From an uncultured virus (IMG/VR IMGVR_UViG_3300033072_000717) (taxonomy: Duplodnaviria; Heunggongvirae; Uroviricota; Caudoviricetes): 64,000 bases of DNA. Under the pieces are notes generated by a model that saw only the letters and a list, made by a program, of their open reading frames with translations, was not told the origin of the DNA and made no database searches. Made by a program: the position numbers and the translations under genes. The stretch lies in IMG/VR virus record IMGVR_UViG_3300033072_000717. One strand, written 5' to 3'. Position 1 is the first letter of the stretch. The number at the start of each line of letters is the position of its first letter. Shown piece by piece: positions 4,060 to 61,157 of the stretch.

Positions 4060-4066
4060 GAAAATT

Positions 4067-14818: not shown

Positions 14819-15351
14819 CCATGAACGATTCCAAACTCAACTCTGAGAAAATGCGCGAGGAGAACAATCATCTGCGCTCCCTCCTACAGCAGATGCTCGA
14901 CGTAGCCGAGGACTGTGACCCCACCGGCTACGCCGATGAGGTTGGCTTTGTGGACCTCGACAAACTGCACGCCGAAGTTCGCCGCGCCATTGAGGCGAAC
15001 CCGCAACCAACCCCCGCCCCAGGCCGCGCCTTGTGGAAAAACGGAACGCCTGACGTGAAGGAAGGCGGTCGTGAAATCTTCTGGTGCGCGACCCGCACCA
15101 GCGCAGGGAAGATTTGGCATCGACACCTCGCATATTTCAACGCGTGCATCATGTCGCTCTCGGACTCGTGCGACGAGCCGCCGGAAGGTGCGGTTCCCGT
15201 GGGCGACGACGGGGACTACGCATTGACCGGCTGGTATCAGGAGTCGTGCGATTACTGTGAGACTCAGTGGAGCTTCGACGGCGAGGTTCTGGCGTGGATG
15301 CGCCTGCCGCGCTGCGACGTGAACACCAAGGTGACACATGGCGGGCGCTAG
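14815..15351 (+). CDS. hypothetical protein ending inside an attC-like site
   Basis: DUF551-like end VLAWMRLP, then VNTKVTHGGR* encoded by the attC arm. Confidence 0.6.
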   Translation: MTMNDSKLNSEKMREENNHLRSLLQQMLDVAEDCDPTGYADEVGFVDLDKLHAEVRRAIEANPQPTPAPGRALWKNGTPDVKEGGREIFWCATRTSAGKIWHRHLAYFNACIMSLSDSCDEPPEGAVPVGDDGDYALTGWYQESCDYCETQWSFDGEVLAWMRLPRCDVNTKVTHGGR

Positions 15352-15381
15352 CCCGACATTGTGTCTGGCGATTTGTTAGCC
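15318..15381 (-). other. attC-like recombination site
   Basis: Minus strand: GGCTAAC-AAATC-GCCAGACA-CAATGTCGGGC [loop] GCCCGCCATG-TGTCACC-TTGGT-GTTCACG. Confidence 0.8.
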
Positions 15382-15393
15382 CTTTCTTTCGTT

Positions 15394-15777
15394 ATGGAAA
15401 AACAACCCGCATACTTCTTCAACATCGCGGACGCCAAAGACCCGGACGACCCGCAGGGGCGCACCTACCGCGAGGTGAACAACGCCAAGGCGCACGGCAT
15501 TCCTCTCGGCGCGCTCGTCGAAATCGCACACGACCCAGAATACCCGTCGCCGATGGACGGTGCGCGCCTCTTTGTGGTGATGCACGGTCGAGACTGCGAT
15601 GGAACGCCGCTCTACGAGCTGTGCGCTGACCCGGAGGACAACGTGCAGGAAAACCCGCGATTCCGAAACGCAAAGTGGCACGGCGGCTACAGCGAGGGCT
15701 CACTGAGAGTCATTCGCCTGCCGGGGGCTAACACCCAACTGACCGGCCCGAGGGGGTCCGGTCGAGTGACTGGTTAG
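15394..15777 (+). CDS. hypothetical cassette protein
   Basis: Cassette ends GTTAGCCC (15375) and GGGCTAAC (15725) are reverse complements. Confidence 0.7.
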   Translation: MEKQPAYFFNIADAKDPDDPQGRTYREVNNAKAHGIPLGALVEIAHDPEYPSPMDGARLFVVMHGRDCDGTPLYELCADPEDNVQENPRFRNAKWHGGYSEGSLRVIRLPGANTQLTGPRGSGRVTG

Positions 15778-15779
15778 GC
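15726..15779 (-). other. attC-like recombination site (54 bp)
   Basis: Minus strand: GCCTAAC-CAGTC-ACTCGACC-GGACCC [loop] GGGCC-GGTCAGT-TGGGT-GTTAGCC. Confidence 0.85.
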
Positions 15780-15802
15780 CCCTGAAAATAATTCACGAAC
15801 AC

Positions 15803-40900: not shown

Positions 40901-43846
40901 GCCGGTGGCTCAACCATCGGTGCCGGCGCCGGATACTTCCGCACGCAGCAAGGGCCGGATGAGACTGACGAGGAGTTTCAGGCCAGACGCCTGCGCAACA
41001 CGCTTCTCGGCGCTGGTGCCGGCGCGGCAATCGGCTTCGGGACTGGGACCTTGGCCCAAGGGGCCAAGCGGCGCATGGCCATGGAGGAGGCGGCCAAGGC
41101 CGCCGAGGAGGCTGCGGCCAAGGCCCGGAAAACCGCTGCCGGCGATGGCCCGGCGGTCCCGCTGCCGCCGGTCGGGCGCGGGCAGGAAGTCCGCGAGACC
41201 GCCAAGAAGGTCATCGAGAACAAGGGCTACACCCAGCGCGTCCGCGAGACCCTGGCGAACGACCCCGATATCATCTACGACGTTTTCTCCCGCAACGAAG
41301 TCCGCGACCAGATGGTCTCCGCCAGTTGGCAGGAGCTTGAATCGCTGGGCCGCTCAAACGACAAGCGCGTCCGGGCCGGGGCTCTGGCTGAAATGGCCAA
41401 CAGGCTTTCAGTGACCCCGGGCAAGGAGGGCGAAGCCGCCGCGCTCATCAGCGAGCTTTCGCAGATGTTCACGGAGCCCGCGCAGTTGATCGGCATGGGC
41501 TCCCTCATCCGCACGCCGGAGATTTATGTGAAGGCTACGGAGGCGCAGCTTGCCAAGGTCAATCGGAAGCTCCCCGAAGCCGAGGCCAAGAAACTGCGTG
41601 ACCTCGCCGCGGACAAGATTCGAGCCGAGCGCGACCTTGAGGCCCAGAATAAACTTACCGAGCAGGAGTTCAGCCCGGAGAATGTCAAAAAGAAGGAGCA
41701 GGCCGAGGCACGCTTTGGCACCAGTAGCAAGGCTGTGGCGGATTACATCTCGGACATAGTTCCGGATGACTGGTCCGACATCATGAGCAAAATACTTCAG
41801 GGGAATCTCCTGACGCCGCTCTCTCTGGCGAGAAACGTGTTCGGCAACACCGCGTTCCAGCCCATCCGGAAAGGTGCCTACTCCATCGCGACGGCCCTGG
41901 ACGCCGTTTACTCGGCCCTTTCCGGGAGGCCGCGCGTGCTGGCTCAAAGCAACCCGTTGCCGGGGATTCGCGAGACAGCCGCTTGGGCAGACGGAACAGC
42001 CTTGGCCGCGAAGGAACTCCTCACCGGCCCATCAGCTGACTCCTATGCCAAGGCTGAAGTCCAGCGCGGGTTCCGCCCGATGCGGGCGCTTGTGCAGGCG
42101 TGGACCGGGGAGGGCCTGCCGGTTCGCGAAAGTGGTGTCGTCGCCATAAACGACCGCCTGAAGAAAGTCGTGGAAGGAACGCTTGGAATACCGGCTGAGG
42201 TTATGTTTCGGGCGCTCAACTTGGGCGACAAGGGCGTGCGCGAGGCGGAGGCGATTCGCCTGTTGCTTGAGGAGGCCCGGCTTCGCAACCTGAAAGGGGC
42301 CGAACTGGAGAAGTTCATCATGTTCCCAGACAAGGCGACCACCCAGCGCCTGATGACCGAAGGGCGCGAGGCGACGTTTACCCAGGAGAACCAAGGGGCG
42401 AAGATCATCCGCAACACGCTCGACAATCTTGCGAGTTTCCTCCCGGAAGACATGGCGAACAACGCATTCATTCGCGGTGCCTTGAAGGTGGTCGCCAGAA
42501 CCCAAGTCCCGTTCGTCCAGTTCCCGCTCAACTATCTCACGACTGCCCTGAACTTCGCCGCCCCGGAACTGGCGATGTTCCGCGCATGGAACAATGCCGC
42601 GCAAGGCAAGCGCCGCGAGGCCATGGTTGCGATGGGGCAGGCGGCCATGGGCGGAATGATGTATTCCGCCGCCGCGTGGCTGTGGGACAAGGGTATTATT
42701 TCCGAGCCTGTGGCCAAGGATGCCCGCGGTCGCTCCATCCAGTTCGACCAAATGGGTCCTCAGCGCATCAACATCAGCGCGCTTCAGCGCGCTGCTGCCG
42801 GCGAGGACACCGCGTGGCGCAGCGGAGACGAGACGCGGGACTGGGGCTCCCTCGGCATCCCGGCCTTCGTGTTCCACACGTTTACCCAGAATGCGGCCAA
42901 GCTCCAGAAGGAGGCCGCTAGAACGGGTGAGCCTGTGAAGCCGAACGATCTCACTGACACCCTGATGACGTTCCCCTATCTGGCCGAGCACGCCTTCGAC
43001 CAGTCGTTCCTCGCCGGCACGTCTGCATTCCTTGATGCGGTCAAGGACTGGGACCGATTCGGCGAGGCGTGGCTTCAGAATACTTTCCGTTCTGTCACCT
43101 CCATCCCACTGCCCAACACCATCGAGTCCATGAACCGGACTCAGTTCAAGTATATCCCGGAGATGAAGGGCAAGACCCCGCTGGAAACGGCTGAGAACAT
43201 CCTGCGCTACAAGTCCATGACGCTCGATCCGGGTGCGCCAACCACCGTTTACAAGCGCGATCTGTGGGGGCAGAAGATTCCGACCACGCCAGAGGGGGCC
43301 AACCCCTACGCCTACCACCTGTTCGATCCCACGCGCAAGGCGGCGAAGACGATGGACGCGACCGACGAAAAACTTTACCGCCTGTTCGACAGCACGGATT
43401 CGCCTGACATCTACCCGTCCATCCCGGCCAAGAGCATCACGTTCCAAGGCACCAGGAAGGAACTGCCAGCGAAGGACTATGAGGCGCTGCAAGTGCTCTC
43501 CGGTGCCTACGCCAAGCGGGCTGCCGACGCCGTGGTCAACCTCCCGGCCTTCAACCGGCCAGACGTTCCTGACGAACTCAAGATTCAGGCCCTTGATGCC
43601 GCCTACCGTGAGGCGTCGAGCGCCGCCACGCAGCAATTCCTCCGGCTGCCCGGGGTCATGGAGCGCATCTTCCCGGAGATGGCGGGCGGCAAGCCGACCG
43701 AGGAAACGCCCAAGACCATCTCTCGGTCCCCGGAGGCGAGGATGCGCTACCGCATGGGCGCGGAAGCGCCCGTGGACGCACCACCGCTGCCGGCACGCGC
43801 AGGCCCACGACAGGAGGAGCCGGTGCTGTTCATGCCCCCTCGCTAG
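37907..43846 (+). CDS. large internal virion (polyvalent) protein with ADP-ribosyltransferase-like inserts
   Basis: 1979 aa; ITLYHGG..FLTT..LKNPLD..AGYDSI and TPAFKRWFGESKVVDAKGKPLVVY..YDGVII..PTQIKSATGNRGTFDPSNPDIR. Confidence 0.75.
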   Translation: MPIVYDNSPRGRVVYDEPDPYDEVVARAQSEERLRGMTPEQVIREVTPEVLPPEPETEAPIFVPGVGWVSAKPSTVTALAPLASRVAPPLAAGLALTGVGVPAAMAVMGGATLAGELGAQALEKELGVRESFSPTEAGAAGIVGSIPGLTQLRAIRPAMQASRTLRAAVPLAEGAGYGALYPTVEAGLRGELPEGEAVRETARFGTMFGVPFAVAGALTGGRVRAPGAGRSLEPLPAGFEGVPLPELPVLPPNPEAALARQGGLARQIQLEDALRAQPPRSAEESAAVFSQFPEASDVAPAELAAMASAARQAEAERIGRAMMEVGGSQPGLGSVVGEPLPFVPPLSPVEQRMINQQGRVSTSALAPAGGAAVGAAGGYMAGDTPEEKAALSLAGAAAGATGGAALNKLPKSTRTLVEPQVKPPSIANAATEIATQTKGSPGALQARLNEMTAVPAPPPAQAATPAAIAALDAAGFRAWAQAQPEGLTGTALEHGRAAAQDAKMLAELKAGKEAVDAEVRAAMEAYKTLPQEAKMGALNEMTSLTSKAQYFNEALAEAGQAAPSGGEITLYHGGPKLEGDIRDPAFLTTDRGGAEWFAGERGRGTGEVAQFSATLKNPLDIDGPDGIETLIRIAKESGADVQITGKIGVPGWDFYSPDIAKHSPYDGGQVVDLVYIPSVRKALREAGYDSIKLDDQLERGTIPTYVVLDRSLLKKSQPPSPDAIPIQEPDAGVPRPEAPQPEIDMGLQRVGEGDAQPGPAAGDRARETPSEGPVARTEVEQIIADAPGSTPPMGRPAEVTRQAARMRSTRGAALIPGTPQTETPAFKRWFGESKVVDAKGKPLVVYKAMYPYDWRGAGLEEITSINRPSEFPAFNKGEKGVKVAGFFGDIPTANRFAESAGSGQAIYPTYLSLKKPFVIEAGGRFAGDVQFGESGKVFRDAIRSGKYDGVIIRNTKDEGTIYVALDPTQIKSATGNRGTFDPSNPDIRGAVSPRVLTSAGGSTIGAGAGYFRTQQGPDETDEEFQARRLRNTLLGAGAGAAIGFGTGTLAQGAKRRMAMEEAAKAAEEAAAKARKTAAGDGPAVPLPPVGRGQEVRETAKKVIENKGYTQRVRETLANDPDIIYDVFSRNEVRDQMVSASWQELESLGRSNDKRVRAGALAEMANRLSVTPGKEGEAAALISELSQMFTEPAQLIGMGSLIRTPEIYVKATEAQLAKVNRKLPEAEAKKLRDLAADKIRAERDLEAQNKLTEQEFSPENVKKKEQAEARFGTSSKAVADYISDIVPDDWSDIMSKILQGNLLTPLSLARNVFGNTAFQPIRKGAYSIATALDAVYSALSGRPRVLAQSNPLPGIRETAAWADGTALAAKELLTGPSADSYAKAEVQRGFRPMRALVQAWTGEGLPVRESGVVAINDRLKKVVEGTLGIPAEVMFRALNLGDKGVREAEAIRLLLEEARLRNLKGAELEKFIMFPDKATTQRLMTEGREATFTQENQGAKIIRNTLDNLASFLPEDMANNAFIRGALKVVARTQVPFVQFPLNYLTTALNFAAPELAMFRAWNNAAQGKRREAMVAMGQAAMGGMMYSAAAWLWDKGIISEPVAKDARGRSIQFDQMGPQRINISALQRAAAGEDTAWRSGDETRDWGSLGIPAFVFHTFTQNAAKLQKEAARTGEPVKPNDLTDTLMTFPYLAEHAFDQSFLAGTSAFLDAVKDWDRFGEAWLQNTFRSVTSIPLPNTIESMNRTQFKYIPEMKGKTPLETAENILRYKSMTLDPGAPTTVYKRDLWGQKIPTTPEGANPYAYHLFDPTRKAAKTMDATDEKLYRLFDSTDSPDIYPSIPAKSITFQGTRKELPAKDYEALQVLSGAYAKRAADAVVNLPAFNRPDVPDELKIQALDAAYREASSAATQQFLRLPGVMERIFPEMAGGKPTEETPKTISRSPEARMRYRMGAEAPVDAPPLPARAGPRQEEPVLFMPPR

Positions 43847-50129: not shown

Positions 50130-51143
50130 ATGAGCAAGACCAACTGGGCAGCCATCCAGCGCGACACTTCGGAGTCGCTTTTCAGACAGAAGATAGCGGA
50201 GGCGGAGCAGCGCGTCAAAGCCTACGAGCAGGCGGTCCATGACGCGATCGAGCAGCGCGATGCCGCCCTCGCCATTGCCAAGGCCCGGCCCGGCATCCAC
50301 ACCATCAAGCCGAAGCCAAGCTCCTCGGCGGATTCGGAGGCCACCGCGGTCGCCTTGGCGGGCGACTGGCATTCCGAGGAAACCGTGGACGCCAAGAGCG
50401 TCAACGGGCTGAACGAGTTCAACCTCGACATCGCCGACCATCGCATCGACCGCTTCTTCCAGTCGGTTCTCCGGCTCACGGAGATCGAGCGCAACGGCAC
50501 GCGGGTCCCCAACCTCGTCATCTGCCTCCTGGGCGACATGATGACCGGCTACATCCACGAGGAATTGCAGGAGAACAACGGGCTCTCCCCGACCGAGACC
50601 GTCCTCTGGCTGCGGAAGCGCATCAACGGCGGCCTCAAGCTGCTTAAGACCAAGGGGAAGTTCGATCACATCACGGTCACCGGCTCATTCGGCAACCACG
50701 GGAGGACCACCAAGAAGCCGCGCCACGCCACCGGGGCGGCGAACAGCTACGAGTGGATGATGTACCAGATGCTCAAGGACGACACGCCGGAGGTCGAGTG
50801 GGTGATCGCGGACGGCTACTTCCTGTTCGTGGAGATTTATGGGCGGTTGTTCCGCATCCACCACGGCGACAACCTGCAATACAACGGCGGCATCGGCGGC
50901 CTGACCATCCCGGCGGAGAAAGCCATCGCCTCGTGGAACAAGTCGCGCCCCGTTTACATGGACCTGTTCGGCCATCACCACACGTCCATGCAGAACCCGC
51001 GGTGGATTTGCAACGGGTCCCTCATCGGGTATGGCCCCTACTCCATCGCCATCAAGGCCGGCTTCGAGGAGCCCTCCCAGACGTTCTTCCTCGTGGACTC
51101 CAAGCGGGGGCGCACCGGGACCTGGCCCATTTTTCTCACATGA
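50130..51143 (+). CDS. calcineurin-like metallophosphoesterase
   Basis: GDWH, LLGDM, GNHGR, HHGD, FGHHH motifs. Confidence 0.8.
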   Translation: MSKTNWAAIQRDTSESLFRQKIAEAEQRVKAYEQAVHDAIEQRDAALAIAKARPGIHTIKPKPSSSADSEATAVALAGDWHSEETVDAKSVNGLNEFNLDIADHRIDRFFQSVLRLTEIERNGTRVPNLVICLLGDMMTGYIHEELQENNGLSPTETVLWLRKRINGGLKLLKTKGKFDHITVTGSFGNHGRTTKKPRHATGAANSYEWMMYQMLKDDTPEVEWVIADGYFLFVEIYGRLFRIHHGDNLQYNGGIGGLTIPAEKAIASWNKSRPVYMDLFGHHHTSMQNPRWICNGSLIGYGPYSIAIKAGFEEPSQTFFLVDSKRGRTGTWPIFLT

Positions 51144-51547
51144 AGACAAACTGGAACAAGATCGTGGAAGACGCACAGGCCAAGCGCCATGTGCTGCCGG
51201 AAGGATGGAGCGACCGCGAATCGGTCGCTGAACAAATCGGATGCGCGCCCGACAACGTGCGCAAGATGCTGAACTCGGCGATCTCCTTGGGGATTGTCGA
51301 GTGCAAGGTGCTCGGGGTCTGGGACTCGAACCTCAAGCGCGTCCGCCAGGTCATGTGCTATCGCGAGATCAACGCCGCGTCGCCTGAGCCGACTCCCGCC
51401 AAGGAAGGTGGCCAGCCGTGGACCGCGGACATGGTTGCCCGAGGGAAGGCGCTCCGCGCCAGCGGGAAATCGTGGTCCCAAATCGCGGCCGTCCTCGGCA
51501 AGACCCGTGCCTCAGTCAAGCACAAGATCATGCGCGCCAAGGCGTAG
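51140..51547 (+). CDS. HTH-containing protein (GcrA-like C-terminus)
   Basis: WTADMV..LRASGKSWSQIAAVLGKTRASVKHK. Confidence 0.65.
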   Translation: MKTNWNKIVEDAQAKRHVLPEGWSDRESVAEQIGCAPDNVRKMLNSAISLGIVECKVLGVWDSNLKRVRQVMCYREINAASPEPTPAKEGGQPWTADMVARGKALRASGKSWSQIAAVLGKTRASVKHKIMRAKA

Positions 51548-51639
51548 CAGGCCAATCCCGCCACACCACCCCGCCTTCTACCCGGCGGTCGCCGCCAGTG
51601 GCTTCGGCAAAAGCAGGCTGCTGGCGGCAGCCAAGGCGG

Positions 51640-53334
51640 TCAGCGTGCCCAATCGAAGAAGCGCTTCCCGATGATGGCAGCGGCCTGACGCTTGTTCATC
51701 TTGACCGCCGCGGGATCGGGAATGCCGAGCTGCTTGAGAAAGTTCATTTGCCGGACGCTGGCCAAGCCAAGCCGTTCGCGGTCGCGGATGCGGGCGATGA
51801 CCTTCTGTGCCAGCCCGGTCGTCTTGATCGCACTGGTGTCGATGCCGGCCTGAAGGATAAAGTCCAGCTCGGCGCGGGCCGGGGGGCGGGCATCCGCCGT
51901 GGTTTCCGGGACATAGGACGCCAGGACCTCATCCCCGACCGAGACTGCCCATGCCAGGGGGTCAATCGTCCTCGGCTGCTTCTTACTGTGCTTCCGCGCC
52001 TCCTTCTCCAAGGTCTTGATCAGGTCCCGCTCGGCGTCCCTGGTCGCATCCTTCACGGCATCGAGCATGGACTTGGTGGACTTCTTCATCTTCTCCTTGA
52101 TCTCCGCCGTATCAGCGACCGCATCAAGCGCGTCGCACAGGTCAATGCGCTCGTGAATCCAGAGCGGGTCCAAGATCAGCAGGTTGGGCTTTTTGCTGGC
52201 GGCGATTGCGGCGCGCCTTTCCTCGGCGGTCATTGACTGGTTTACCACCCCGGGGAGCACGCGGGTCCCGCGCCCGACCAGCTGCCGGTAGAACCCCTTC
52301 GACTTGGTGGCCCGGGCGACCAGTACGCAATCGGTGTCAGGGAAGTCAGCACCCTCGGTGTAGAGCGCCGCATTCACCAGCACAGTGCCGGGTCCGGCGT
52401 CCACATAACGCTGGGTCTTCTCGTCCACATCCAGGCACTCGCCCGAGACGAAGATTCCGGTCATGCCCTTGGCTGTGATCGCATCGGCCAGCAGTTTGGC
52501 GCAGTGGATTGACGGCGTGAACGCGATGGTCTTTCGGTCCTTGGCCAACGCGGCCACCTGCTCGGCGAGGGCGCCGATGACGGGCTCCAGCTTGCGCGAA
52601 AGGTCGCCAGCCCGGAAGTCCGAGCCGTTCGGCGTGCGCCCGGGGCGAAGGTCGCGAATGTCAATCCTGAGCGGCATCGACTTGGTGGTCGGTGGCACCA
52701 GCCAGCCGTCCTCCACGGCGGAGATCAGGGAATACGGGGGTTCGACAAAGTAATCGAAGAACTCGGCCAGCTCCTCAATTGGGGTGGCCGTGATACCGAG
52801 GACCCGCGCCTTGTGCTGGTAGGTGCCACGCGGGGGCGCGACCCAGCCCTCGGCCAGTGACTCGGCCCCGATGTGGAAGTAGTTCAGGACCCGCAGCCAT
52901 GTTTCCGCGACAACGTGGTGACTTTCGTCGGCCACGATCAGGTCAAAGTGATCGTCGGCAAATGCGGAAAGTCGATTGACGCGGGCCAAAGTCTGCACGC
53001 TGGCCACCACGACCATGGCCTGCGGGCTTGCGCTCTCGCCCGCCATCTCGATCGCCGCCTCGACGCCGGTTTCGGCGGTGATGCGATGGGCGGACTGCCT
53101 GACCAGCTTGTCGCGGTTCGCGAGGAACAGGCAGCGCCGCCCAGCGGCGACCTCGCGCCGGAAAATCTCGGCGGCAACGGTCGTCTTCCCTGTTCCGGTC
53201 GCCATCTCCAGCAGGATGCGCGGAAACCTCGGCCAATGCCGATAGATGGTGTCTATCCTGGTCAGCTGGTAGTCGCGCGGCGCAAACCCCGAGGCCGCAG
53301 GGGCGTCGTCGTCAAAGCACAAGCCTTCTGGCAT
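51640..53334 (-). CDS. SF2 DEAD/DEAH-box helicase
   Basis: PRDYQ, MATGTGKT, ADESHH, GITATP, EGADFP, QLVGRGTR. Confidence 0.92.
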   Translation of the reverse strand: MPEGLCFDDDAPAASGFAPRDYQLTRIDTIYRHWPRFPRILLEMATGTGKTTVAAEIFRREVAAGRRCLFLANRDKLVRQSAHRITAETGVEAAIEMAGESASPQAMVVVASVQTLARVNRLSAFADDHFDLIVADESHHVVAETWLRVLNYFHIGAESLAEGWVAPPRGTYQHKARVLGITATPIEELAEFFDYFVEPPYSLISAVEDGWLVPPTTKSMPLRIDIRDLRPGRTPNGSDFRAGDLSRKLEPVIGALAEQVAALAKDRKTIAFTPSIHCAKLLADAITAKGMTGIFVSGECLDVDEKTQRYVDAGPGTVLVNAALYTEGADFPDTDCVLVARATKSKGFYRQLVGRGTRVLPGVVNQSMTAEERRAAIAASKKPNLLILDPLWIHERIDLCDALDAVADTAEIKEKMKKSTKSMLDAVKDATRDAERDLIKTLEKEARKHSKKQPRTIDPLAWAVSVGDEVLASYVPETTADARPPARAELDFILQAGIDTSAIKTTGLAQKVIARIRDRERLGLASVRQMNFLKQLGIPDPAAVKMNKRQAAAIIGKRFFDWAR

Positions 53335-53370
53335 CGGGGTTGATTCTTGCTAAAGGGGTGGAGGGGAGGC

Positions 53371-53420
53371 GTTAGCGGGGGTTGATATGCGAACCGCCGG
53401 TTTGATATTCAGTGTTAGGC
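53371..53420 (+). other. conserved array-head (attI-like) site, copy 2
   Basis: GTTAGCGGGGGTTGATATGCGAACCGCCGGTTTGATATTCAGT-GTTAGGC (perfect GTTRRRY core). Confidence 0.7.
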
Positions 53421-53617
53421 CGAGAGAGGTCCAAGAACGCCGTGCATCGCGTGCCGTGAAGTTCGTTGGTCCACTTGTCGAAAAGCGGGCAGTAGCCGAC
53501 ATGCATCCGGGGCTGGCAGGGCTCCCAGTGGTGGCATGCGCGGCAGTGTCCCGCCGAACCCTCGCCTGTGCCAACGCTTTTGCTCTGTCCTTTTTCGGTT
53601 ATGATTTCTCCGCTCAT
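53372..53617 (-). CDS. small Cys-rich cassette protein
   Basis: CRACHHW..GYCP..C; C-terminus PNTEYQTGGSHINPR encoded by the attI-like site. Confidence 0.6.
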   Translation of the reverse strand: MSGEIITEKGQSKSVGTGEGSAGHCRACHHWEPCQPRMHVGYCPLFDKWTNELHGTRCTAFLDLSRPNTEYQTGGSHINPR

Positions 53618-53671
53618 GGTTTCGGGGTGGTTGAAGGGTTGGGCCCGCCGTCGCTAAGCTTTTCGTTCGGA
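53553..53671 (+). other. hybrid/degenerate attC-like site
   Basis: GCCGAAC-CCTCG-CCTGTGCC-AAC and GCTAAGC-TTTTC-GTTCGGA arms are each attC-like but do not pair well with each other. Confidence 0.5.
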
Positions 53672-53910
53672 AAGACGGCGGCGCGGAAGTTTGCGGGAGA
53701 GTCGGTATGATAGCGGAGGTCGTCGATGATGTCGCCAGCGGTGGTCAGGCATCCCTCGCGCGCGGTCTGCATGGCCAGCCATTCGCGGCACGCCTCAAGC
53801 GTGGATTCAATTTCCGAACCCGGCGCCAGAGCCAACGCCCGTTGCTGGGCCGGTTGGTCGGGGATGGCTCCAACGCTCGGGGCCGGTGAGTTGTTCGGGG
53901 CGTGGCTCAT
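53614..53910 (-). CDS. hypothetical cassette protein
   Basis: Cassette ends GTTCGGAAA (53665) and TTTCCGAAC (53811) are exact reverse complements; ATG lies in the attC L' box. Confidence 0.65.
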   Translation of the reverse strand: MSHAPNNSPAPSVGAIPDQPAQQRALALAPGSEIESTLEACREWLAMQTAREGCLTTAGDIIDDLRYHTDSPANFRAAVFPNEKLSDGGPNPSTTPKP

Positions 53911-53924
53911 CTTATTTGTTCGGC
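53813..53924 (+). other. attC-like recombination site
   Basis: TCCGAAC-CCGGC-GCCAGAGC-CAACGCCC [loop] GGGCGTG-GCTCATC-TTATTT-GTTCGGC. Confidence 0.8.
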
Positions 53925-54247
53925 CGACTGACCGTGATGGCGAATCGACCGATTTGGAGAATCACACGCGGGAGGTTTCTCGCGGCTTTAAGATGGCTCT
54001 CGTTTGCGATGTCGCAGGCGAACACCCGCACTTCATGCGGCAGCGCGAGGTTGTCGGTGTGGTTCTGGAGTCTGTCCTTGCGCCCAGCCGCCCACGCATC
54101 GCCAAGAAGTTTGTGGGCGTCGTTGAGCGCGGCTTGCTGCGTGCCTTTGGAGTAGCACAGCCAGAACCAAGAAGGCCCGGCCATGCGCCAGAGCCAGCGC
54201 CGGAGAGCGCCAGTGAGAATGCGGAGTCGTGGGGCGGCGTGGCTCAT
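53912..54247 (-). CDS. hypothetical cassette protein
   Basis: Starts (MSHA) in one attC arm and stops (PNK*) in the next. Confidence 0.6.
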   Translation of the reverse strand: MSHAAPRLRILTGALRRWLWRMAGPSWFWLCYSKGTQQAALNDAHKLLGDAWAAGRKDRLQNHTDNLALPHEVRVFACDIANESHLKAARNLPRVILQIGRFAITVSRPNK

Positions 54248-54262
54248 TTCGGAATGTTAGAC
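54175..54262 (+). other. attC-like site with mutated R'' box
   Basis: GCCCGGC (AAC to GGC)-CATGC-GCCAGAGC-CAGCGCCG [loop] CGGCGTG-GCTCATT-TCGGAAT-GTTAGAC. Confidence 0.6.
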
Positions 54263-54307
54263 AAGGCAGACCATTTTCCCGGCGTCAGGAAATTGGTTCT
54301 CCTTTGC

Positions 54308-54865
54308 CTAGCGCGGCTTCCCCCCTTCGCTGCGCCTGATAATGTCGTCCAAAACGGCCCGCACCGTCCTGATTTCCTGCGCGGTCATCTCCCCGCAGCG
54401 GAGCCGCATCGCGTCGTCGCTGAGGCCGCGCCACTCCCGCACGGCCACAGAACAGCAACCTTGTTCGAGCGAGGCGATTTCGCTCGGGGTCGGATGCCCA
54501 CGATAGCGGGCAATGTCATCGGCCATTTTTTGCGCCTCGGGCGAATGATGATTGTCGGCCCTAAAGATTCCATCGTGGGGCGGACCGGCTTCTTCCGCCT
54601 TGGGCTGCGCGATGATGCCCCGCAAGCGGGCGATCTCCGCAAGCGCGCATTGGGCAATCTCGATGGTGTGCGGGTGGAATCCGCCCTTGGATTCCGCGAT
54701 GTAGGTAAGGCCGTCCGTGCCGTCGTTGAACCGGAAAAGCAGGGAGTGGGGTTCCGCCGGCTGGTCATCCCCATCCCTCCACAAGTCCAGGCCAAAAGCG
54801 GCGGCTTCGGCCTGGAGGCGGTCGGCGGCGGCGGACCACGAGGTGGGTTTTTCGGGTGGGTTCAT
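54308..54865 (-). CDS. hypothetical protein
   Basis: LRCGEMTAQEIRTVRAVL phage motif. Confidence 0.6.
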   Translation of the reverse strand: MNPPEKPTSWSAAADRLQAEAAAFGLDLWRDGDDQPAEPHSLLFRFNDGTDGLTYIAESKGGFHPHTIEIAQCALAEIARLRGIIAQPKAEEAGPPHDGIFRADNHHSPEAQKMADDIARYRGHPTPSEIASLEQGCCSVAVREWRGLSDDAMRLRCGEMTAQEIRTVRAVLDDIIRRSEGGKPR

Positions 54866-54891
54866 TTTTGGTAAGCTGGTGTTGGTTGGGG

Positions 54892-54941
54892 GTTAGCGGG
54901 GGTTGATATGCGAACCGGGAGTTTGATATTCACTGTTCAGC
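54892..54941 (+). other. conserved array-head (attI-like) site, copy 3
   Basis: GTTAGCGGGGGTTGATATGCGAACCGGGAGTTTGATATTCACT-GTTCAGC. Confidence 0.7.
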
Positions 54942-55265
54942 TTAGAGGGACATTGGGGTGTGCCACGCGTCGCCGAAGACCTCGCGGTCGTAGCGCTCCT
55001 CGGGCGTCTCGTCGTCCTCATCGAGCGGGTCGTCTTGCAGGTCGTCGCAGAGGCCACCGGCCAGCACGCCAGCGCACGGGCAGTCATTCGAGCATCGGCA
55101 GTGCTTCGCCATGCTTTCGACCCACGCTTGATATTCGGGATCGTCCGGCATGTCGGGAGCCTCGGGAAGAAGAGCTGAACCAGGCGCCACACCCAATTCC
55201 GGGGCGCGGTCCGTTTCAGCTTCGGCGGGAGATTGCAGCGGGCGAGAGTCGTTCGGCGTATTCAT
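54942..55265 (-). CDS. acidic Cys-containing cassette protein
   Basis: Cassette ends GTTCAGCT (54935) and AGCTGAAC (55173); start lies in the attC loop. Confidence 0.65.
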   Translation of the reverse strand: MNTPNDSRPLQSPAEAETDRAPELGVAPGSALLPEAPDMPDDPEYQAWVESMAKHCRCSNDCPCAGVLAGGLCDDLQDDPLDEDDETPEERYDREVFGDAWHTPMSL

Positions 55266-55304
55266 ATTTTCAGGCCCCGGAATTGGTGATCTTGGTGGTT
55301 CGGC
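55174..55304 (+). other. attC-like recombination site
   Basis: GCTGAAC-CAGGC-GCCACACC-CAATTCCGGGGC [loop] GCCCCGGAATT-GGTGATC-TTGGTG-GTTCGGC. Confidence 0.85.
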
Positions 55305-55726
55305 GGAAGCACCTCAGACGGGTGTCCGTATTTTTGCCACACGGGAGTCGGCTGTTTCTCTCTCGGTTCTAGCGTAGCCCGCAGTCGATCCAAGAACCTT
55401 GAGTCACCCGCCACGTCTGGATCGTCTTGCGCTTCGCAGTAATCGGATATTGCTACGCGGTATCGTGCAATCTCGGCGTCCAGTCGGACAATCTCGTGGT
55501 CATCCTTGGCCATTGCCGCGTCCATTTTTTCGAGCGTCTGGATTGCACGGAATAGCGTCAGCGTCACCGGGTGCTGATTTGCACGAAATTCGGCAGCCCA
55601 CTCGCGGAGGTTATCCACAAGATAAGGCACGCCGAACAAGCGATCAGAGCCAACGCTGACAGCGGCTCCTTGGTTTTCGATAGTTGGATTTGTATTCATG
55701 GGTTGAGAGTAGTTCTGCGCTGTCAT
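55262..55726 (-). CDS. hypothetical cassette protein
   Basis: Cassette ends GTTCGGCG (55298) and CGCCGAAC (55630). Confidence 0.6.
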   Translation of the reverse strand: MTAQNYSQPMNTNPTIENQGAAVSVGSDRLFGVPYLVDNLREWAAEFRANQHPVTLTLFRAIQTLEKMDAAMAKDDHEIVRLDAEIARYRVAISDYCEAQDDPDVAGDSRFLDRLRATLEPREKQPTPVWQKYGHPSEVLPPNHQDHQFRGLKI

Positions 55727-55750
55727 CGTGGCTCACTCGCAGGGTTAGCT
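55631..55750 (+). other. attC-like recombination site
   Basis: GCCGAAC-AAGCG-ATCAGAGC-CAACGCTGACAGCG [loop] CGCTGTCATCGTG-GCTCACT-CGCAGG-GTTAGCT. Confidence 0.85.
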
Positions 55751-56038
55751 GGCTTTCGCCTCGGCGGTTTCGCGCCGCAGAGGACACCAGTTTGGTTGTA
55801 TGTCTTTTGACCCGATTTCGCGCCCATGTTCCAGCAGCCGCCCGCGTATCTCGCCTTGCTTCGCCGCAATCTTCGGGTCGTCAGACAGCGGTTCATCGTC
55901 GAAGGCTTCTGGATGTTTGCACACACAGTCGCAGGTGATTCCGTGGAGACGCGAGCAGAGCATGTTCGTGCGCTTCAGGTGTTCGCACGGCTCACAGTGG
56001 CGTTCCGTTCTGGCCGGGATGTTGTGTGTCGTTGGCAT
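55745..56038 (-). CDS. Cys-rich cassette protein
   Basis: CEPCEH..C.CKHP..PNWCPLR; stop lies in the core site. Confidence 0.65.
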   Translation of the reverse strand: MPTTHNIPARTERHCEPCEHLKRTNMLCSRLHGITCDCVCKHPEAFDDEPLSDDPKIAAKQGEIRGRLLEHGREIGSKDIQPNWCPLRRETAEAKAS

Positions 56039-56337
56039 TAGTCCTTTCGCATCGTGTCGAGCCAGCGGCAGAAGGCATCGTCACCGATTTCATTGCAGAT
56101 GACGGATTGCAGCATATCGCCGAGTTGATTCCACCCGATGTCATCACAGTCGAGATGGTGTTTCGCGTAGGCACAGAGGACGGCGTGCAGCAGCCGGTCG
56201 TTGCGGCCAGCGTGTTTGTTCAGTTCGTGGTAGTTCGGATTTGTGAGAGGTTCGACGCCAGCTAACAAAGCGGTGCAGCACAACTCGGCTTCGCGCTTGG
56301 CTTCGGACTTCGGTTTCTGGTTGGCGGTTGCGCTCAT
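56038..56337 (-). CDS. hypothetical cassette protein (two-gene cassette)
   Basis: Cassette ends GTTAGCTGGC (55744) and GCCAGCTAAC (56257), exact 10 bp. Confidence 0.65.
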   Translation of the reverse strand: MSATANQKPKSEAKREAELCCTALLAGVEPLTNPNYHELNKHAGRNDRLLHAVLCAYAKHHLDCDDIGWNQLGDMLQSVICNEIGDDAFCRWLDTMRKD

Positions 56338-56394
56338 TTCATTCCTTCGCTTTCTGGTGTTCGGCCAGCCGAGTGGCTGACCTTATCGTTCGGC
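56260..56394 (+). other. attC-like recombination site
   Basis: AGCTAAC-AAAGC-GGTGCAGC-ACAACTCGGCT [loop] AGCCGAGTG-GCTGACC-TTATC-GTTCGGC. Confidence 0.88.
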
Positions 56395-56708
56395 CTATCG
56401 GGAATGACTTCGCCGCAGACCCAGCAATACACCTCGCCCTCGAATTGGTATTTCCTCGGATGCGTGCATTTGCCGCCGCCTACATCCACGTAGTCCGCCA
56501 CACGCCGGCGGGCCGCGTGCAGTAGGTTGATCGAATCCGTCAGCCATGGGTGCGGCGGCATCGCGTCGATGATTTTCACGGCGTCCCAGATCGCCTTTTC
56601 GGCGGGCGTGAATTGGTCGATGCGGTCGCGGCGAATTGCCGAACCCTCGGCCACAGCACAACCGGCGTCTTTGTCCGGCTTGCGACTATTTTCAGTTGGA
56701 TTTCGCAT
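56334..56708 (-). CDS. hypothetical cassette protein
   Basis: TPAEKAIWDAV..HPWLTD..LL.AAR..VADYVD; cassette ends GTTCGGC (56388) and GCCGAAC (56638). Confidence 0.65.
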   Translation of the reverse strand: MRNPTENSRKPDKDAGCAVAEGSAIRRDRIDQFTPAEKAIWDAVKIIDAMPPHPWLTDSINLLHAARRRVADYVDVGGGKCTHPRKYQFEGEVYCWVCGEVIPDRPNDKVSHSAGRTPESEGMK

Positions 56709-56762
56709 AGAGTGTTGGCGCGGCTTTAGCCCCGCGCCGGTGGCTGATCCGAACCGTTAGAT
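56638..56762 (+). other. attC-like recombination site
   Basis: GCCGAAC-CCTCG-GCCACAGC-ACAACCGGCG [loop] CGCCGGTG-GCTGATC-CGAACC-GTTAGAT. Confidence 0.85.
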
Positions 56763-56978
56763 AAACTGAATCGGAAGTCTGTTCCACTTGCCGCACGACG
56801 GGCAGTTCGCCACCGCGCACTCGTCGTTTCGTCCGCGATTAAATGGGTAGTATCGGCGCGTTTCAAAGGGGCGCTTGCAGTTGCCGCAGATGATCCCGGC
56901 CTTCGGGTTTCCCCAAAGACAGATATTCCACGCCTCGAAATGGGCGGCGTTGCAGAGTTGATCTTGGGTTATCGTCAT
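56757..56978 (-). CDS. Zn-ribbon cassette protein
   Basis: ICGNCKR..NCPSCGKWN; bounded by GTTAGAT (56756) and ACCTAAC (56983). Confidence 0.65.
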   Translation of the reverse strand: MTITQDQLCNAAHFEAWNICLWGNPKAGIICGNCKRPFETRRYYPFNRGRNDECAVANCPSCGKWNRLPIQFI

Positions 56979-57070
56979 AAGCACCTAACAAAGCGCTGGG
57001 GACAATGCGGTCAGCTTTCACGCTGTCTTGTCGTGCAGGTTTATTTACGTTTGTTGATCTGGCGAAAGTT

Positions 57071-57385
57071 TCAGGTGTTCGGGCCGCGCGTCTCACCTTT
57101 GTCGTTCACCCTGCGTTTTTCGGCCCCGTAAATAACCTCCAGCGCCTTCCTTTGAAGCTCGGCGCGCTGTTCGGGCGTGTAGCTATTCATCCGCTTTCGC
57201 GCTTGCGCGCAGGCTCGCATGGTGCGCCGGTGCTGGTTGCGGCGGTGTGCGGCCATATCAACCAGATGGAACTCGCATCCGTCCGGGGTGCGGCGGGCAA
57301 AGCAGGAGAGGACCGCAATGAGCGCAGATTCTTTTGTTTTGGTCCCCTTAACGGTAAGGACGAACTGATGTTGTTTGATTTTCAT
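57071..57385 (-). CDS. hypothetical protein (degenerate cassette-like)
   Basis: Ends GPNT* on a GTTCGGG core; TGCTAAC-CAGTG half-site at 57398. Confidence 0.55.
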   Translation of the reverse strand: MKIKQHQFVLTVKGTKTKESALIAVLSCFARRTPDGCEFHLVDMAAHRRNQHRRTMRACAQARKRMNSYTPEQRAELQRKALEVIYGAEKRRVNDKGETRGPNT

Positions 57386-57612
57386 GGAAATTAAAAGTGC
57401 TAACCAGTGGGTTCATAAAACGGCGGCGATCCTCTGTCTCGGTGCTCCGTGTTCACCCCATCCATCGGCGCAGCACCAGTTCAGCGGCCATCTCATCCGC
57501 GATCGCGCAGAAACGGTGCCAGTTGCGGCGGTTGCCAAAGGTTGATTTAACCTCGGGCAGTGCGTCGAAGAAGAAGTTCACCAAGCTTAGGTCGAATGCC
57601 ATGTTTTGAGTT

Positions 57613-57870
57613 TTAAGGGGTGACCTGGCTCACCGTGACAGTCGGTTGGACCGAAGGCAAGAGCGGAAGGCGGATAAACCAGCCCGCTTCGTACCAGGAG
57701 CCTTTGTATTTTTCAACGTGCTGCTTTGCGATGCGCACGTCAAAGGTGATGAAGTCGTTGATCGCTCGCTGGCCCGATGCGCAGTCGATGCCGGTGGTGT
57801 GCCCACACAAGAGCGCCGAACCCTCGGTTTCGCCCGGCGCCGCCTGGCGGTCTGGCTGGCCAACGCTCAT
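57613..57870 (-). CDS. hypothetical protein
   Basis: N-terminal EGSA peptide from an attC-like half-site GCCGAAC-CCTCG at 57815. Confidence 0.45.
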   Translation of the reverse strand: MSVGQPDRQAAPGETEGSALLCGHTTGIDCASGQRAINDFITFDVRIAKQHVEKYKGSWYEAGWFIRLPLLPSVQPTVTVSQVTP

Positions 57871-58259
57871 CGCCCATTCCCCCCGACAAACTCCCGAATC
57901 CGCTTCGCGACCTCGGCTGGCGTGGTATAGCACCCTCGCGGGTATTGTGCAGACATAAAGAGCAAGCCGGCTTGCCGCAAATCAACCCCGAAGAAAGCCG
58001 TCACGGCTGCCCAGCTAACATGCCCTTTGTATTCTGGGACAGCCGTGTGCCGCTCGCGCTTCTTCAGTCGAAGCCCTGCCTTCTTAAACCCCGGGTGGGT
58101 TGTCGCCCAGCCAACTGCGCACGCGGTTGTCCCGCAGCCGCCAATGCGCTTGCCCTTCGGCTTGTGGGCCCAGCACGACAGGTCAAACTGCTCCTTGGGC
58201 ACGGTGTCCAGCAGGTCGGCCAGCATGAGGAGCCGGCGGTGGGTGGCTTCGGTTTTCAT
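57867..58259 (-). CDS. phage protein with CGTTACAVGWA motif
   Basis: FDLSCW..GCGTTACAVGWA..FFGV..LF..T..EVAKRIREFV. Confidence 0.65.
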   Translation of the reverse strand: MKTEATHRRLLMLADLLDTVPKEQFDLSCWAHKPKGKRIGGCGTTACAVGWATTHPGFKKAGLRLKKRERHTAVPEYKGHVSWAAVTAFFGVDLRQAGLLFMSAQYPRGCYTTPAEVAKRIREFVGGNGR

Positions 58260-58726
58260 TTCTCGTCGGGGGTTGGGCTATCGCCGTTCGGCCTGCTGCA
58301 AAGCGGGCGCAGGCACTCCTGGATCATTCCGATCGTCGTGGGGTCCGGCGCCCTCCTGCGCTCGTTCATCCACTCGACCAACTCATCCGCGTATCGCTCG
58401 CGACAGCGTATCAAGTCCCGGGCTTCTGCGAGCGATACGCAGCAATCGGCCACATCCAGCCGCCGCGACAGCGCAACCAGCAGCCCCTCCGCCGACCCGG
58501 GCGTGAGCCCGAACGTGAGTTCGCAGGTTTTGCCGTCGTCGGTGGGCCGAAAGAAGCGGAGGCAGTAGCCGCCATGCTCCTTGATGCGCCAGACTTCCAC
58601 CCTCCGGCCTTCGCCGCAGTCCACCGTGATGCCGTCGGTCAGCGTGGCGTTCCTGATCCTGCCGATGTTGGCCTCGTGGAAGGGGACGGTCTCCGCCGTG
58701 TGTGACTCGATCAAATCCTTATTCAT
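58256..58726 (-). CDS. hypothetical protein, first gene of the leftward operon
   Basis: Downstream of the CCGCTTGACGG promoter-like site at 58823-58837 (minus strand). Confidence 0.55.
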   Translation of the reverse strand: MNKDLIESHTAETVPFHEANIGRIRNATLTDGITVDCGEGRRVEVWRIKEHGGYCLRFFRPTDDGKTCELTFGLTPGSAEGLLVALSRRLDVADCCVSLAEARDLIRCRERYADELVEWMNERRRAPDPTTIGMIQECLRPLCSRPNGDSPTPDEK

Positions 58727-59030
58727 GCGGGCCTCCGATCTTGGGGCGCCACCCCCGCGCCCTCAGCATCAACCATGATCAGCTTTTTCATCGTGCCCAA
58801 GCCAAATCACAGGTGCGCCCATCCGTCAAGCGGTTTTTTGGGCCAGCTCCATCGCCAGCCCGCTTGCCCACCACCGCATCCTCCACCGCCAGCCCGCCCT
58901 CCCCCCAAGCCGCCCCCCAAGCCAATTTTCTCTGACGGCAAAATCCGCCGCCCCCTGCTATTGTAAAAATCCCGAGCATCCCGCTGACTCCCACTGTGTT
59001 ACCACCACTTTCGGCTGCAATTGTAAAATC

Positions 59031-59468
59031 TCGGAAGTAACCTCCCGGCGGTTTTGAAATGTAAAAGTCCTAAGTCGCTGATCATCAGGGCGGGGAAACC
59101 TCTCGTGATAGTTACTTCCGAGTTACTTCCGAGCCCTTTTTTTACACTTTTCTCTGACAGCAAAAAAGCTTCGGAAGTAACCTCCCGCCGAAAAACGGGC
59201 CAAAAACCGGGGCAGAAAGGCGGCCCGGAACTTCCACTACCGGATAGAGGGCAGCGACTTCCGTGAGCGGGGATCGGCGGCTGTGTGCAATTGTAAAATC
59301 TCGGAAGTAACTCGGAAGTAACTCGGAAGTAACTGCCCTTTTTGGGGCCAGACGGCGGCTCGTAAGTAACCCTCAGGCTGGCCCCCCCCTAAAGGGGGGG
59401 CCAGCACTGTAGGTAGTTACTTCCGAGCGCAGAACGCCGTCAAGACATGGCCGGGGGTTACTTCCGAC
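59031..59468. repeat. dispersed 11-bp iteron-like repeat TCGGAAGTAAC in both orientations (putative origin or operator cluster)
   Basis: Plus copies at 59031, 59171 and three tandem at 59301-59333; inverted copies at 59111, 59122, 59416, 59457; non-coding. Confidence 0.85.
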
Positions 59469-59980
59469 TTTTTACAATTCAAACGGGGTGGGGAGCCAAA
59501 GCCCAGACTACGCCCAGAAATCACGCCAGAACCCCAGGATTGATGCGATGGCCAAACCAGGATGCCCCATTCCGCCAATCCTTTGAACCCAGGATGAACT
59601 TTTCGGCATGTCGTGACCCCAGATACTCGGGATGCGTTAAACGCAGCGGAAATGGCCTTGGTGGGCGTGTTGGGTTTTGGGGCTGTTCCGCCGCTGCCCC
59701 TGCCCGCTGGTGCCACCCCGCCTGCTGATCAATTTCAAATCCGGGGGTCGAGAAAAGGGGTAGGGGGTGGATTCCGGCGAACGGAAAAGGGGTGGGCGTG
59801 TTGGGCGTCCTTAAAGGGGTTATCGAGAAGGGTTGGGGGGGTTGCTGCGGGTGGTCGAGCAGGGGGTGGTGGGTGGCCCCTGCCAGTCGCCCCGGCAGCC
59901 AGTCCCGGCGAGATCGCCGCGCGGCCGGCCTAGCCCGCCTGGCGAGCTGTTGAGACTGGCAGAGAGCAGTCATGCGGAAT

Positions 59981-60008
59981 ACTAGACATAATGATTATTG
60001 TGCGAGGT
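59981..60008 (-). other. dif-like XerC/XerD site
   Basis: Minus strand ACCTCGCACAA-TAATCA-TTATGTCTAGT, 11-6-11 layout; compare E. coli dif GGTGCGCATAA-TGTATA-TTATGTTAAAT. Confidence 0.7.
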
Positions 60009-60149
60009 AGTCCACTTGTGCAAGTCAGTGCGAGCCAGTGCCTTGCGCTTGTTGAGACTGGCAAACGCGCGGGCTTGCGGCAAATGGCCCTAGTGTGCTA
60101 GGGGGAATCCCCTACGCGCCTGCAAGCCTAGCCGGATCAGCGCACGGCA

Positions 60150-60735
60150 CCAGGCGGCCGGTGCGGAACATGGCTTCCTCGGCGGTGATGTTCTCGGTCG
60201 GGTAGAACTCGATCCGGTCGATTTGGACGCGGTCGGCGTCCCAGTAATGCGGATTGCGCTCGACCGCGATGCGCTGGTTGCGGGCCCATTCGACGAGGCG
60301 GTAGGGGCCGCTGCTGACGAAGCGCCCGGCGCGGGTCCAGGGCACGCTGCGCTGGTCGAGGGGTCCGTGGGACGTGATCGCGTGCAGGGGCAGGGGCCAC
60401 CATGAGTAGTGGTTGGCCATGAGGCGGAGGAGGAAGGGGGTGGGGGAGTTGAGGGTGACGGTGACCGTGCTCTCGTCGGGAGCGGCGAAGCCGACCTGGG
60501 ACCAGTCGGTGAGCCGGCCCTTGTTGTAGGCCTCGGCGCCGACGACGAACCACAGGTGGTAGGAGTACTCGGAGCCGAGCGCGGGGGTGAGCATGCGCCG
60601 GAAGGAGGCCACGATCTCGGAAGCGGTGATCGGGACGCCGTCGGACCACTTCAGGCCGGGACGGAGGTGGAAGGTGTAGACACGGCCGTCGGGGGAGATG
60701 TCCCAGCGTTCGGCGAGGCCCGGCTCGGGCTCGGC
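60150..60735 (-). pseudogene. internal fragment of a bacterial oligopeptide ABC-transporter substrate-binding gene (oppA-like)
   Basis: EPGLAERWDISPDGRVYTFHLRPGLKWSDGVPITA..GPYRLVEW..RNPHYWD..AEEAMFRTG; no signal peptide or C-terminal half; in-frame stop just upstream. Confidence 0.85.
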
Positions 60736-61157
60736 TGAAAAGTAAGAGGGCTAGTTGAGATTGAATCTCAAAACGAGACATCAACATATTCGAATACGTT
60801 GATACGTTCGCCCCCGTAGCCCACCAGGCCGGCGCCGAGATCAGCGCTGCCAGCCAGTCCCCGCAACGCTTGGCTAGTCCGCGCCAGTCCGCGCCAGTCA
60901 TCGCTATCCCCAAACCAAAAAACAAGCCTAACGCACTGGTAGACAGATGGAAGCGCTCGAGGCCTGAAAATTAAGCTTGCGTCGCGCGGCAGGCGGGTGT
61001 TGGTGTCGGCCATGGAAACTAACTCTCGGCTGATCACCCAGTACATCAGCCCGTGGCATTTCGGCCGCCGGACCAAGACGATCATCGACCGCGGCGCGTC
61101 GCGGGTCTGGATGGTCATGATCGAGCCCGGACGAGTTGAGTCAACCGAACCGCAACT

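Follow-up and report, generated by a model that had tools for sequence, protein, structure and literature searches.

The stretch of DNA analysed here, called the window, comprises 64,000 nt from an uncultured tailed virus of the Caudoviricetes (IMG/VR record IMGVR_UViG_3300033072_000717). Between 53.4 and 57.1 kb it holds two adjacent arrays of small leftward genes separated by imperfect hairpins. We consider it probable that these are arrays of integron-type gene cassettes without an integrase, situated in the leftward early operon of the phage and moved by an integron integrase (IntI) acting in trans. The hairpins resemble attC sites, and the genes between them are inverted with respect to those of bacterial cassettes.

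A sequence-only reading of this DNA had named six hairpin sites. All six exist, and a covariance model (R1, described below) finds them on the minus strand, at 53810–53928, 54172–54266, 55171–55308, 55628–55754, 56257–56398 and 56635–56766. The model adds two array sites, 53550–53675 and 56980–57114, giving eight in the region, seven of which have both an AAC and a GTT box. Each AAC-ending box is the reverse complement of a word that begins with GTT and lies at the opposite end of its own body, over lengths of 5, 9, 8, 9, 10, 7 and 5 nt. Five such pairs had been quoted earlier, and each is present at its place: GTTCGGAAA (53665) with TTTCCGAAC (53811-19), GTTCAGCT (54935) with AGCTGAAC (55173-80), GTTCGGCG (55298) with CGCCGAAC (55630-37), GTTAGCTGGC (55744) with GCCAGCTAAC (56257-66), and GTTCGGC (56388) with GCCGAAC (56638-44). 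The summed length of the own-interval matches, 53, is equalled by only 8 of the 5040 permutations of boxes over intervals. Words of this kind are enriched in 53371–57400, where GTTCGG occurs 10 times (3.3 expected) and CCGAAC 5 times (0.66 expected). A further motif, near GCGTTGGCTCTGGCGCCGGGTTCGG, lies on the gene-sense (minus) strand 42–80 nt past the start codon of most small genes; it occurs five times on the minus strand of 53.8–57.0 kb, but neither on the opposite strand there nor in the rest of the 64 kb (shuffle mean 0.42). The idea that it encodes a conserved peptide was dropped, as it falls in different reading frames among the genes, and it is therefore a DNA-level feature.

The eight window sites were aligned with four further ones, taken from a related viral record (L010/G002), and the alignment shows a shared layout. 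In gene sense, a box ending in AAC is followed by a spacer of 8–9 nt, an 8-nt arm (typically GAGCCACG), a loop of 6–86 nt, a 9-nt arm (CGTTGGCTC), a 9-nt spacer and GTT. The earlier description of attC anatomy was thus right about the AAC and GTT boxes and the unequal arms, but not about the dimensions: the spacers are 8–9 and 9 nt rather than 5, and the L arms 9 and 8 nt rather than 8 and 7. Model R1 was built from these 12 phage hairpins. At E < 1e-4 it finds 38 sites, 26 of them outside the training set, in four phage records (the window, G002, L005 and L006), which also define the sample for the cassette signature and gene orientation below; none is found in L002, L003, L004 or L007. A motif-pattern search of viral sequences had returned four loci, of which L005 and L006 are real arrays by model R1, and L003 and L004, with no R1 site, were taken as chance matches. 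Sites in phage range from 61 to 142 nt in length. In 35 of the 38, the 3′ arm (gene sense) carries 1–2 extra nucleotides, always on the same side, and the 8–9- and 9-nt spacers are unpaired. In the accessible text of Bouvier 2009 (PMC2727003), extrahelical bases sit on the R″–L″ arm and the central spacers are likewise unpaired.

Single-sequence folding energies of the window sites are unremarkable (z from −2.1 to +1.6); structural support for the hairpins comes from covariation and not from energy. When the 38 sites are aligned by fitting to model R1, 94% of L-stem cells are paired, and the AAC and GTT boxes pair in 37–38 of 38. All eight L-stem pairs show compensatory changes, with 55 cells altered on both sides versus 15.4 in shuffles (0 of 500 shuffles as high). 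A test that does not depend on the model compared each arm with its own and with swapped partners: the own arm is the best partner in 8 of 12 hairpins, and the summed energy is −199 kcal/mol for own arms versus −129 ± 10 kcal/mol for swapped ones, with 0 of 20000 permutations as good. For the 12-site alignment, 87% of cells pair, versus 75.5% in shuffles and 31–49% with the partners slid. In an arm-to-arm duplex test only two of the eight array sites beat all 200 shuffles, and an energy-only scan for AAC...GTT hairpins proved unselective in this GC-rich DNA, with 63 and 57 matches on the two strands.

In the four phage records, boxes that flank the same body are complementary over at least 7 nt in 22 of 29 bodies (7 nt being the commonest length), and none of 20000 permutations reaches the observed value. 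This agrees with the proposal that most cassettes begin with the reverse complement of their own closing box. The companion statement, that the two boxes of a single hairpin are usually unlike, holds as well: they match over at least 7 nt in only 4 of 39 cases, compared to 9.5% of 1453 non-neighbour pairs. The 7-nt rule is the footprint that would be expected if a circular cassette were opened by a cut within one of the boxes of a palindromic site.

Three independent criteria place the phage genes antisense to the top strand of attC, as had been suggested. The extra base lies on the arm adjoining the plus-strand AAC box, which makes this the canonical R″–L″ arm. The mobile unit consists of a body and the hairpin on its plus-strand 3′ side. 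And the longer open reading frame (ORF) of a body tends to lie on opposite strands in bacteria and phages: relative to the model strand, it is opposite in 20 bodies, the same in 5 and tied in 9 for bacterial arrays, versus 14 the same, 2 opposite and 12 tied for the phage records (Fisher p = 3e-5, on this crude longest-ORF measure). These data support the view that the phage cassettes are true attC-type cassettes with inverted genes. As the genes are on the attC bottom strand, a site stands at the 5′ end of each, where it usually supplies the start codon, often in the conserved ATGAGCCACG of the arm, together with about 15–30 leader codons. The 5′ spacer of the hairpin often reads TAAGATG, which ends the upstream ORF and starts the one after it. 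The spacer beside the AAC box (53911–53918, and in other hairpins) is often AAATAAGATG, again with a stop for the upstream ORF and a start for the next. Such an arrangement suggests a predicted role for the spacer as a built-in junction for translational coupling.

Public sequencing runs were a second source of evidence for cassette exchange. Pieces of the region were found in 24 runs from 15 studies; two runs cover all of it and may be its source. For cassette C5 (55299–55744), recurrence was followed in Logan contigs of runs X1, X5, X6 and X8. Contigs from activated-sludge, drinking-water and freshwater studies (X1, X5, X6) share the stretch 55298/9–55746/8 with the window at about 99% identity, the best case being X1 record 5 (55298–55748, one mismatch in 451 nt), with further copies in X5 records 10 and 11 and X6 records 14 and 16. 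On both sides these copies adjoin sequence unlike that of the window, in which the joints are 55298/9 and 55744/5, each at G/TT. The neighbours on one side are other hairpins ending ...GGCTCAT plus spacer, and on the other side new bodies beginning GTTAGGC, GTTCGGC or GTTCTGC. Near-identity of C5 amid different neighbours implies recent movement. A fourth study (wastewater run X8) contains only parts of the C5 body, along with a variant of its hairpin on another body; records 21 and 22 of the same run match cassette C7. Contig L052 has C5 beside a different cassette with its own 9-nt box pair. In protein searches, relatives of three cargo proteins diverge just past the Pro-Asn encoded by the AAC box, with P0038 and P0039 parting from C2 directly after ...FPN and P0034 from C7 after ...PN. 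Shuffling of cassettes at G/TT, which had been postulated from the letters alone, is therefore borne out by C5 between unlike flanks in three studies, by the 7-nt rule in 22 of 29 bodies and by the divergence of protein relatives after the AAC box, an exception among the breakpoints being an intragenic joint at 55506 that is considered below.

We also asked where else such sites occur. A 22-base two-arm hairpin pattern matched 113 stretches in a species-genome collection, versus 1–5 expected from composition, and 65 of the 80 matches listed bear Verrucomicrobiota names, for the most part those of Opitutaceae and Opitutales. Each of the four genomes checked encodes an IntI above the TIGR02249 cut-off (364–379 bits; cut-off 265). 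In G009, intI and the first site are 0.9 kb apart; in G007 the distance is 1.6 kb, and the first site there opens an array of at least 26 sites with a uniform length of 106 nt; the intI genes beside these two arrays score 364–369 bits. In both genomes the model strand is the intI strand, and therefore the model, like the phage genes, reads the attC bottom strand. The phage-derived model finds 23 sites within 12 kb of L091, with scores of 44–60 bits. On the chromosome of Oleiharenicola sp. Vm1 (G008/L063), six attC-type sites at 423.5–435.6 kb form an integrase-less cluster about 1.4 Mb from intI (1.886 Mb, at 1885751–1886677), and in G010 the site cluster and intI are on different contigs. By these sequence comparisons, the phage sites form one family with the attC sites found in chromosomal integrons of Opitutaceae and related Verrucomicrobiota. 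Common to the phage and the sedentary chromosomal integrons of Opitutaceae (G007, G009) are the site family, the AAC and GTT boxes, the 7-nt rule for cassette ends, the extra base on the R″–L″ arm, the variable loops and the joints at G/TT. The differences are equally clear. The phage has no intI or recognisable attI, and its arrays lie inside a phage operon; its genes are on the attC bottom strand with their start inside the site; and its sites vary in length, whereas those of the bacterial arrays are uniform. The site family thus forms arrays directly beside intI in G007 and G009 but not in the phage itself.

By the usual classification, a complete integron has an intI with a catalytic domain and an attI beside the array, and the phage shows neither. 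With eight attC-type sites in 3.6 kb and no intI found nearby, the region instead qualifies as a cluster of attC sites lacking an integrase (CALIN). No intI was detected over the roughly 68 kb covered by the window and viral record G001, with ORF scans only for the first 13.7 kb of the window. (G001 is the same phage, with 100% identity to window positions 51000–60000.) A search for resolvase families in four viral records gave no match. Directly downstream of the five-hairpin array of G002 there is a 171-aa ORF (L022, 477–992, minus strand) with only a Phage_int_SAM_4 (SAM-like N-terminal) domain and a low-complexity tail, probably a remnant of an IntI- or Xer-type gene.

In the mechanism that we favour, each cassette would run on the plus strand from one G/TT to the next and consist of a gene body followed by an attC-type site. 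The site would comprise an R″ box that ends in AAC, an unpaired spacer of 9 nt, L″ with one extra base, a variable loop, L′, a spacer of 8–9 nt and the G of the next GTT. Cassettes would move as folded single strands by way of a circular intermediate, the catalyst being an integron integrase that the host or a co-resident element may supply in trans during infection, and the flipped genes would be expressed by read-through from early phage promoters.

Several observations weigh against this mechanism. The tested ORFs of the window revealed no catalytic domain of a tyrosine recombinase (ORF scans only for the first 13.7 kb), and a six-frame search found no PF00589 or TIGR02249 catalytic domain in G001, complete G002 or the fragments G005 and G006. 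The phage host and its IntI are presumed. Canonical attC spacers are about 5 nt, shorter than those of the phage. Single-sequence folds are no better than shuffles at five of the eight array sites, and three sites (53550–53675, 54172–54266 and 56980–57114) look decayed. Logan contigs demonstrate presence only. In addition, near-identical hairpins occur on unrelated bodies: the leader of one is 84–97% identical on 13 otherwise unrelated proteins, and the C7 hairpin recurs at 92% identity on another body in L052. Chimeric leaders are seen in P0003 and P0034. Finally, there is the joint inside gene 55262–55726 at 55506, away from any box. Contigs of X6 and X8 join the first part of this gene to another second half at that point, in agreement with P0014–P0018, which indicates domain-level mosaicism within the cassette. 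Given the hairpins on unrelated bodies and the joint at 55506, either other recombination also acts or crossovers take place at the R″ box too.

Some of these points bear on alternative explanations. Cassettes and sites may be as described but moved by an Xer-type or other hairpin-recognising recombinase of the host or phage, rather than by IntI. This would account for the failure to find IntI in four viral records, for spacers of 8–9 and 9 nt that differ from the canonical ones, and for the exchange of hairpins between bodies, which suggests crossovers at both boxes. We nevertheless regard it as unlikely, since in Opitutaceae the same site family forms classical arrays directly beside an intI that scores above the integron-integrase cut-off, and there is no Xer-like gene near the phage arrays. 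Alternatively, the arrays could be inert relics, captured by the phage from a chromosomal integron of the host and no longer mobile. The lack of an integrase in cis, the degeneracy of three of the eight sites and a 46-nt element (see below) that is unlike the host attI regions examined all fit such an origin. Yet simple capture cannot explain an orientation that is opposite to that of the bacterial arrays and uniform in four phage records, and C5 would not be expected at about 99% identity with different neighbours in three further studies, nor single cassettes at 3.2–4.1 and 15.3–15.8 kb, if the units were immobile; we hold this explanation to be quite unlikely.

Another possibility is that the hairpins are regulatory linkers, acting in translational coupling or as terminators, and that the genes are shuffled by homologous recombination through the phage RecT and exonuclease, as has been proposed for the PeSL motifs of T4-type phages. 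PeSLs are promoter–terminator motifs thought to act via homologous recombination; to our knowledge, AAC/GTT boxes and complementary cassette ends are absent from them, and no site-specific recombinase has been linked to them. The shared sequence of the linkers, the presence of RecT and exonuclease genes in the phage, the chimeric leaders and the intragenic joint, and the stop and start codons in the spacer are all in line with this idea. Homologous recombination does not, however, predict the 7-nt complementarity of body ends, joints exactly at G/TT between unlike sequences, a one-sided extra base in 35 of 38 sites, or arrays of the same sites beside intI in bacteria, and we judge this model to be very improbable.

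The individual cassettes, all with their top strand on plus and their genes on minus, are as follows. Array 1 begins with C1 (53415–53665), which carries gene 53372–53617 and hairpin 53550–53675 (65.8 bits); it is probably a decayed or composite unit, because its own-box match is only 5 nt and its stem is weak. C2 (53666–53918) has gene 53614–53910, hairpin 53810–53928 (91.4 bits) and a 9-nt box pair; the gene starts at 53910, within the hairpin, and its ORF extends 17 codons beyond its own box. The third unit, C3 (53919–54256), contains gene 53912–54247 and hairpin 54172–54266 (52.1 bits). The R″ box of this hairpin has degenerated, with loss of AAC, so that no AAC/GTT box remains at 54174–54181, and C3 is for this reason probably fixed in place. 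Backbone on the minus strand separates the two arrays (54308–54934), comprising gene 54308–54865 (185 aa, without a hairpin) and one copy of the 46-nt element. In array 2, C4 (54936–55298) encloses gene 54942–55265 entirely and has an 8-nt box pair and a hairpin (55171–55308, 71.5 bits) with a 13-bp perfect stem and the gene start in its loop; none of 200 shuffles folds as well. Gene 55262–55726 of C5 (55299–55744) starts in hairpin 55628–55754. C6 (55745–56388) carries two genes, 55745–56038 and 56038–56337, together with hairpin 56257–56398 (66 bits) and a 10-nt box pair, and has a TAA stop codon within its R′ box. C7 (56389–56756) holds gene 56334–56708 and hairpin 56635–56766 (77.7 bits). 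The distal end of the array is C8 (56757–57114), with gene 56757–56984, for which a weak profile match indicates a zinc ribbon, and a weak hairpin (56980–57114, 51 bits) whose arms pair poorly.

Two separate cassettes lie elsewhere in the window. At 3219–4062, hairpins 3219–3358 and 3967–4062 (39.5 and 38.7 bits) surround gene 3243–4049, with the 8-nt box pair GTTCGCCG/CGGCGAAC. At 15314–15782, hairpins 15314–15384 and 15722–15782 (35.5 and 28.9 bits) surround gene 15361–15777, with the 8-nt pair GTTAGCCC/GGGCTAAC. All four of these extra sites are on the plus strand, the same as the local genes. Between hairpin 3967–4062 and a copy of the 46-nt element, positions 4062–7440 encode an IS1595-family transposase, a D12 adenine methyltransferase and a PD-(D/E)XK nuclease, and may represent a large cassette-like insertion with a methylase and a nuclease.

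The conserved 46-nt element is present in three copies. Copy A (53371–53416, minus strand) abuts the first G/TT of array 1 (GTT at 53414-16), with the helicase start (53334) some 40 nt downstream of it; copy B (54893–54934) is in the backbone between the arrays; and copy C (7440–7490, plus strand) is upstream of gene 7509–7772. In sense orientation, the AAC box marks the exact start of the conserved block. Copy A is a probable promoter or operator, and its use as a recombination platform is a guess. Viral contigs scanned for exact copies of the element yielded none. We considered a copy of a host attI and dropped this idea on finding no similarity to the bacterial integron loci examined; a candidate for a comparable element in G002 was also set aside, as it lacked a clean AAC border.

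The window as a whole is the genome of a divergent tailed phage, with genes for RecT, a DnaB-type helicase, SSB, a VRR-NUC nuclease, an exonuclease and a 1979-aa polyvalent protein (37907–43846) that bears an ADP-ribosyltransferase (ART-PolyVal) domain. The early operon with the arrays is a leftward run of small orphan genes, which extends from an iteron-rich control region at about 59 kb to the gene for a 564-aa helicase (51640–53334). Searches of the Pfam and PHROG libraries assigned none of its small genes to a family or function, and a search of the ESM Atlas with gene 55262–55726 yielded no function. The cargo genes are not evident paralogues, this possibility having been dropped when an all-against-all BLASTP of the small genes came back empty. 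Non-coding sequence at 58950–59480, at the head of the operon, repeats an 11-nt iteron (TCGGAAGTAAC) about ten times, with direct, tandem and inverted copies adjoined by ATTGTAAAAT-like boxes, and is probably the replication origin or an early control region of the phage. At 60115–60750 there is a truncated SBP_bac_5 solute-binding gene, which covers only the first half of the profile and has 65–69% DNA identity to paralogues in four Opitutaceae genomes; it could be a prophage end or a captured piece of host DNA. The window contains no tRNA genes, and Rfam gave no matches to it, although the presence of an attC family in Rfam is itself uncertain. The array region had no blastn match among GenBank phages, and a search for relatives anchored on the helicase returned only distant phages (48–57% aa identity), with none of the small genes in common and no array beside the helicase.

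How new is this arrangement? CALINs occur in temperate and virulent phages, and phage attC sites have been recombined by IntI1 supplied in trans, according to the accessible text of Qi et al. (2023, PMC9892861), which also reports divergent site directions or several ORFs per cassette in some phage CALINs. Uniformly inverted genes, start codons within the site and an attC type of the host lineage are not described in that text. The sequence-only reading knew of no description of the arrangement; attC clusters in phages as such are on record (PMC9892861), but the inverted form with the start codon in the site was not found in the open-access literature, nor was a phage that uses the attC type of its host lineage. 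Repeated stem-loop motifs between small variable early genes, with proposed modular shuffling, are known for T4-type phages in the form of PeSLs, as stated in the accessible portions of two reports (PMC2839356, PMC4122927).

A phage-specific pool of cassettes, another proposal of the sequence-only reading, is plausible. Going one step further, phages of Verrucomicrobiota might keep a mirror-image cassette pool of their own, in which the site serves as a portable start module from which a gene would obtain its conserved ATG and leader peptide, and the gene upstream its stop, and in which host IntI is borrowed during infection to shuffle early, possibly anti-defence, genes. We see the chances of this extended view as evenly balanced. 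If it is true, mirror-image cassettes would be silent in a host integron, and the phage and host pools could share one enzyme and yet be functionally separate.

Bacteria stockpile and shuffle genes by means of integrons, the textbook system of this kind, in whose cassettes phage-defence genes have recently been found. Our data suggest that phages draw on the same cassette system for their own accessory genes. Here, a phage lineage uses the attC type of its presumed host lineage for orphan early genes, in an unusual form: the genes are inverted, the start codon is inside the site and no integrase is encoded. One practical consequence is that attC surveys assuming top-strand ORFs will mis-annotate phage cassettes. 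More broadly, the arrays offer a concrete way in which small early genes of phages could turn over rapidly, and suggest that the cassette mechanism may serve both sides of the conflict between phage and host.

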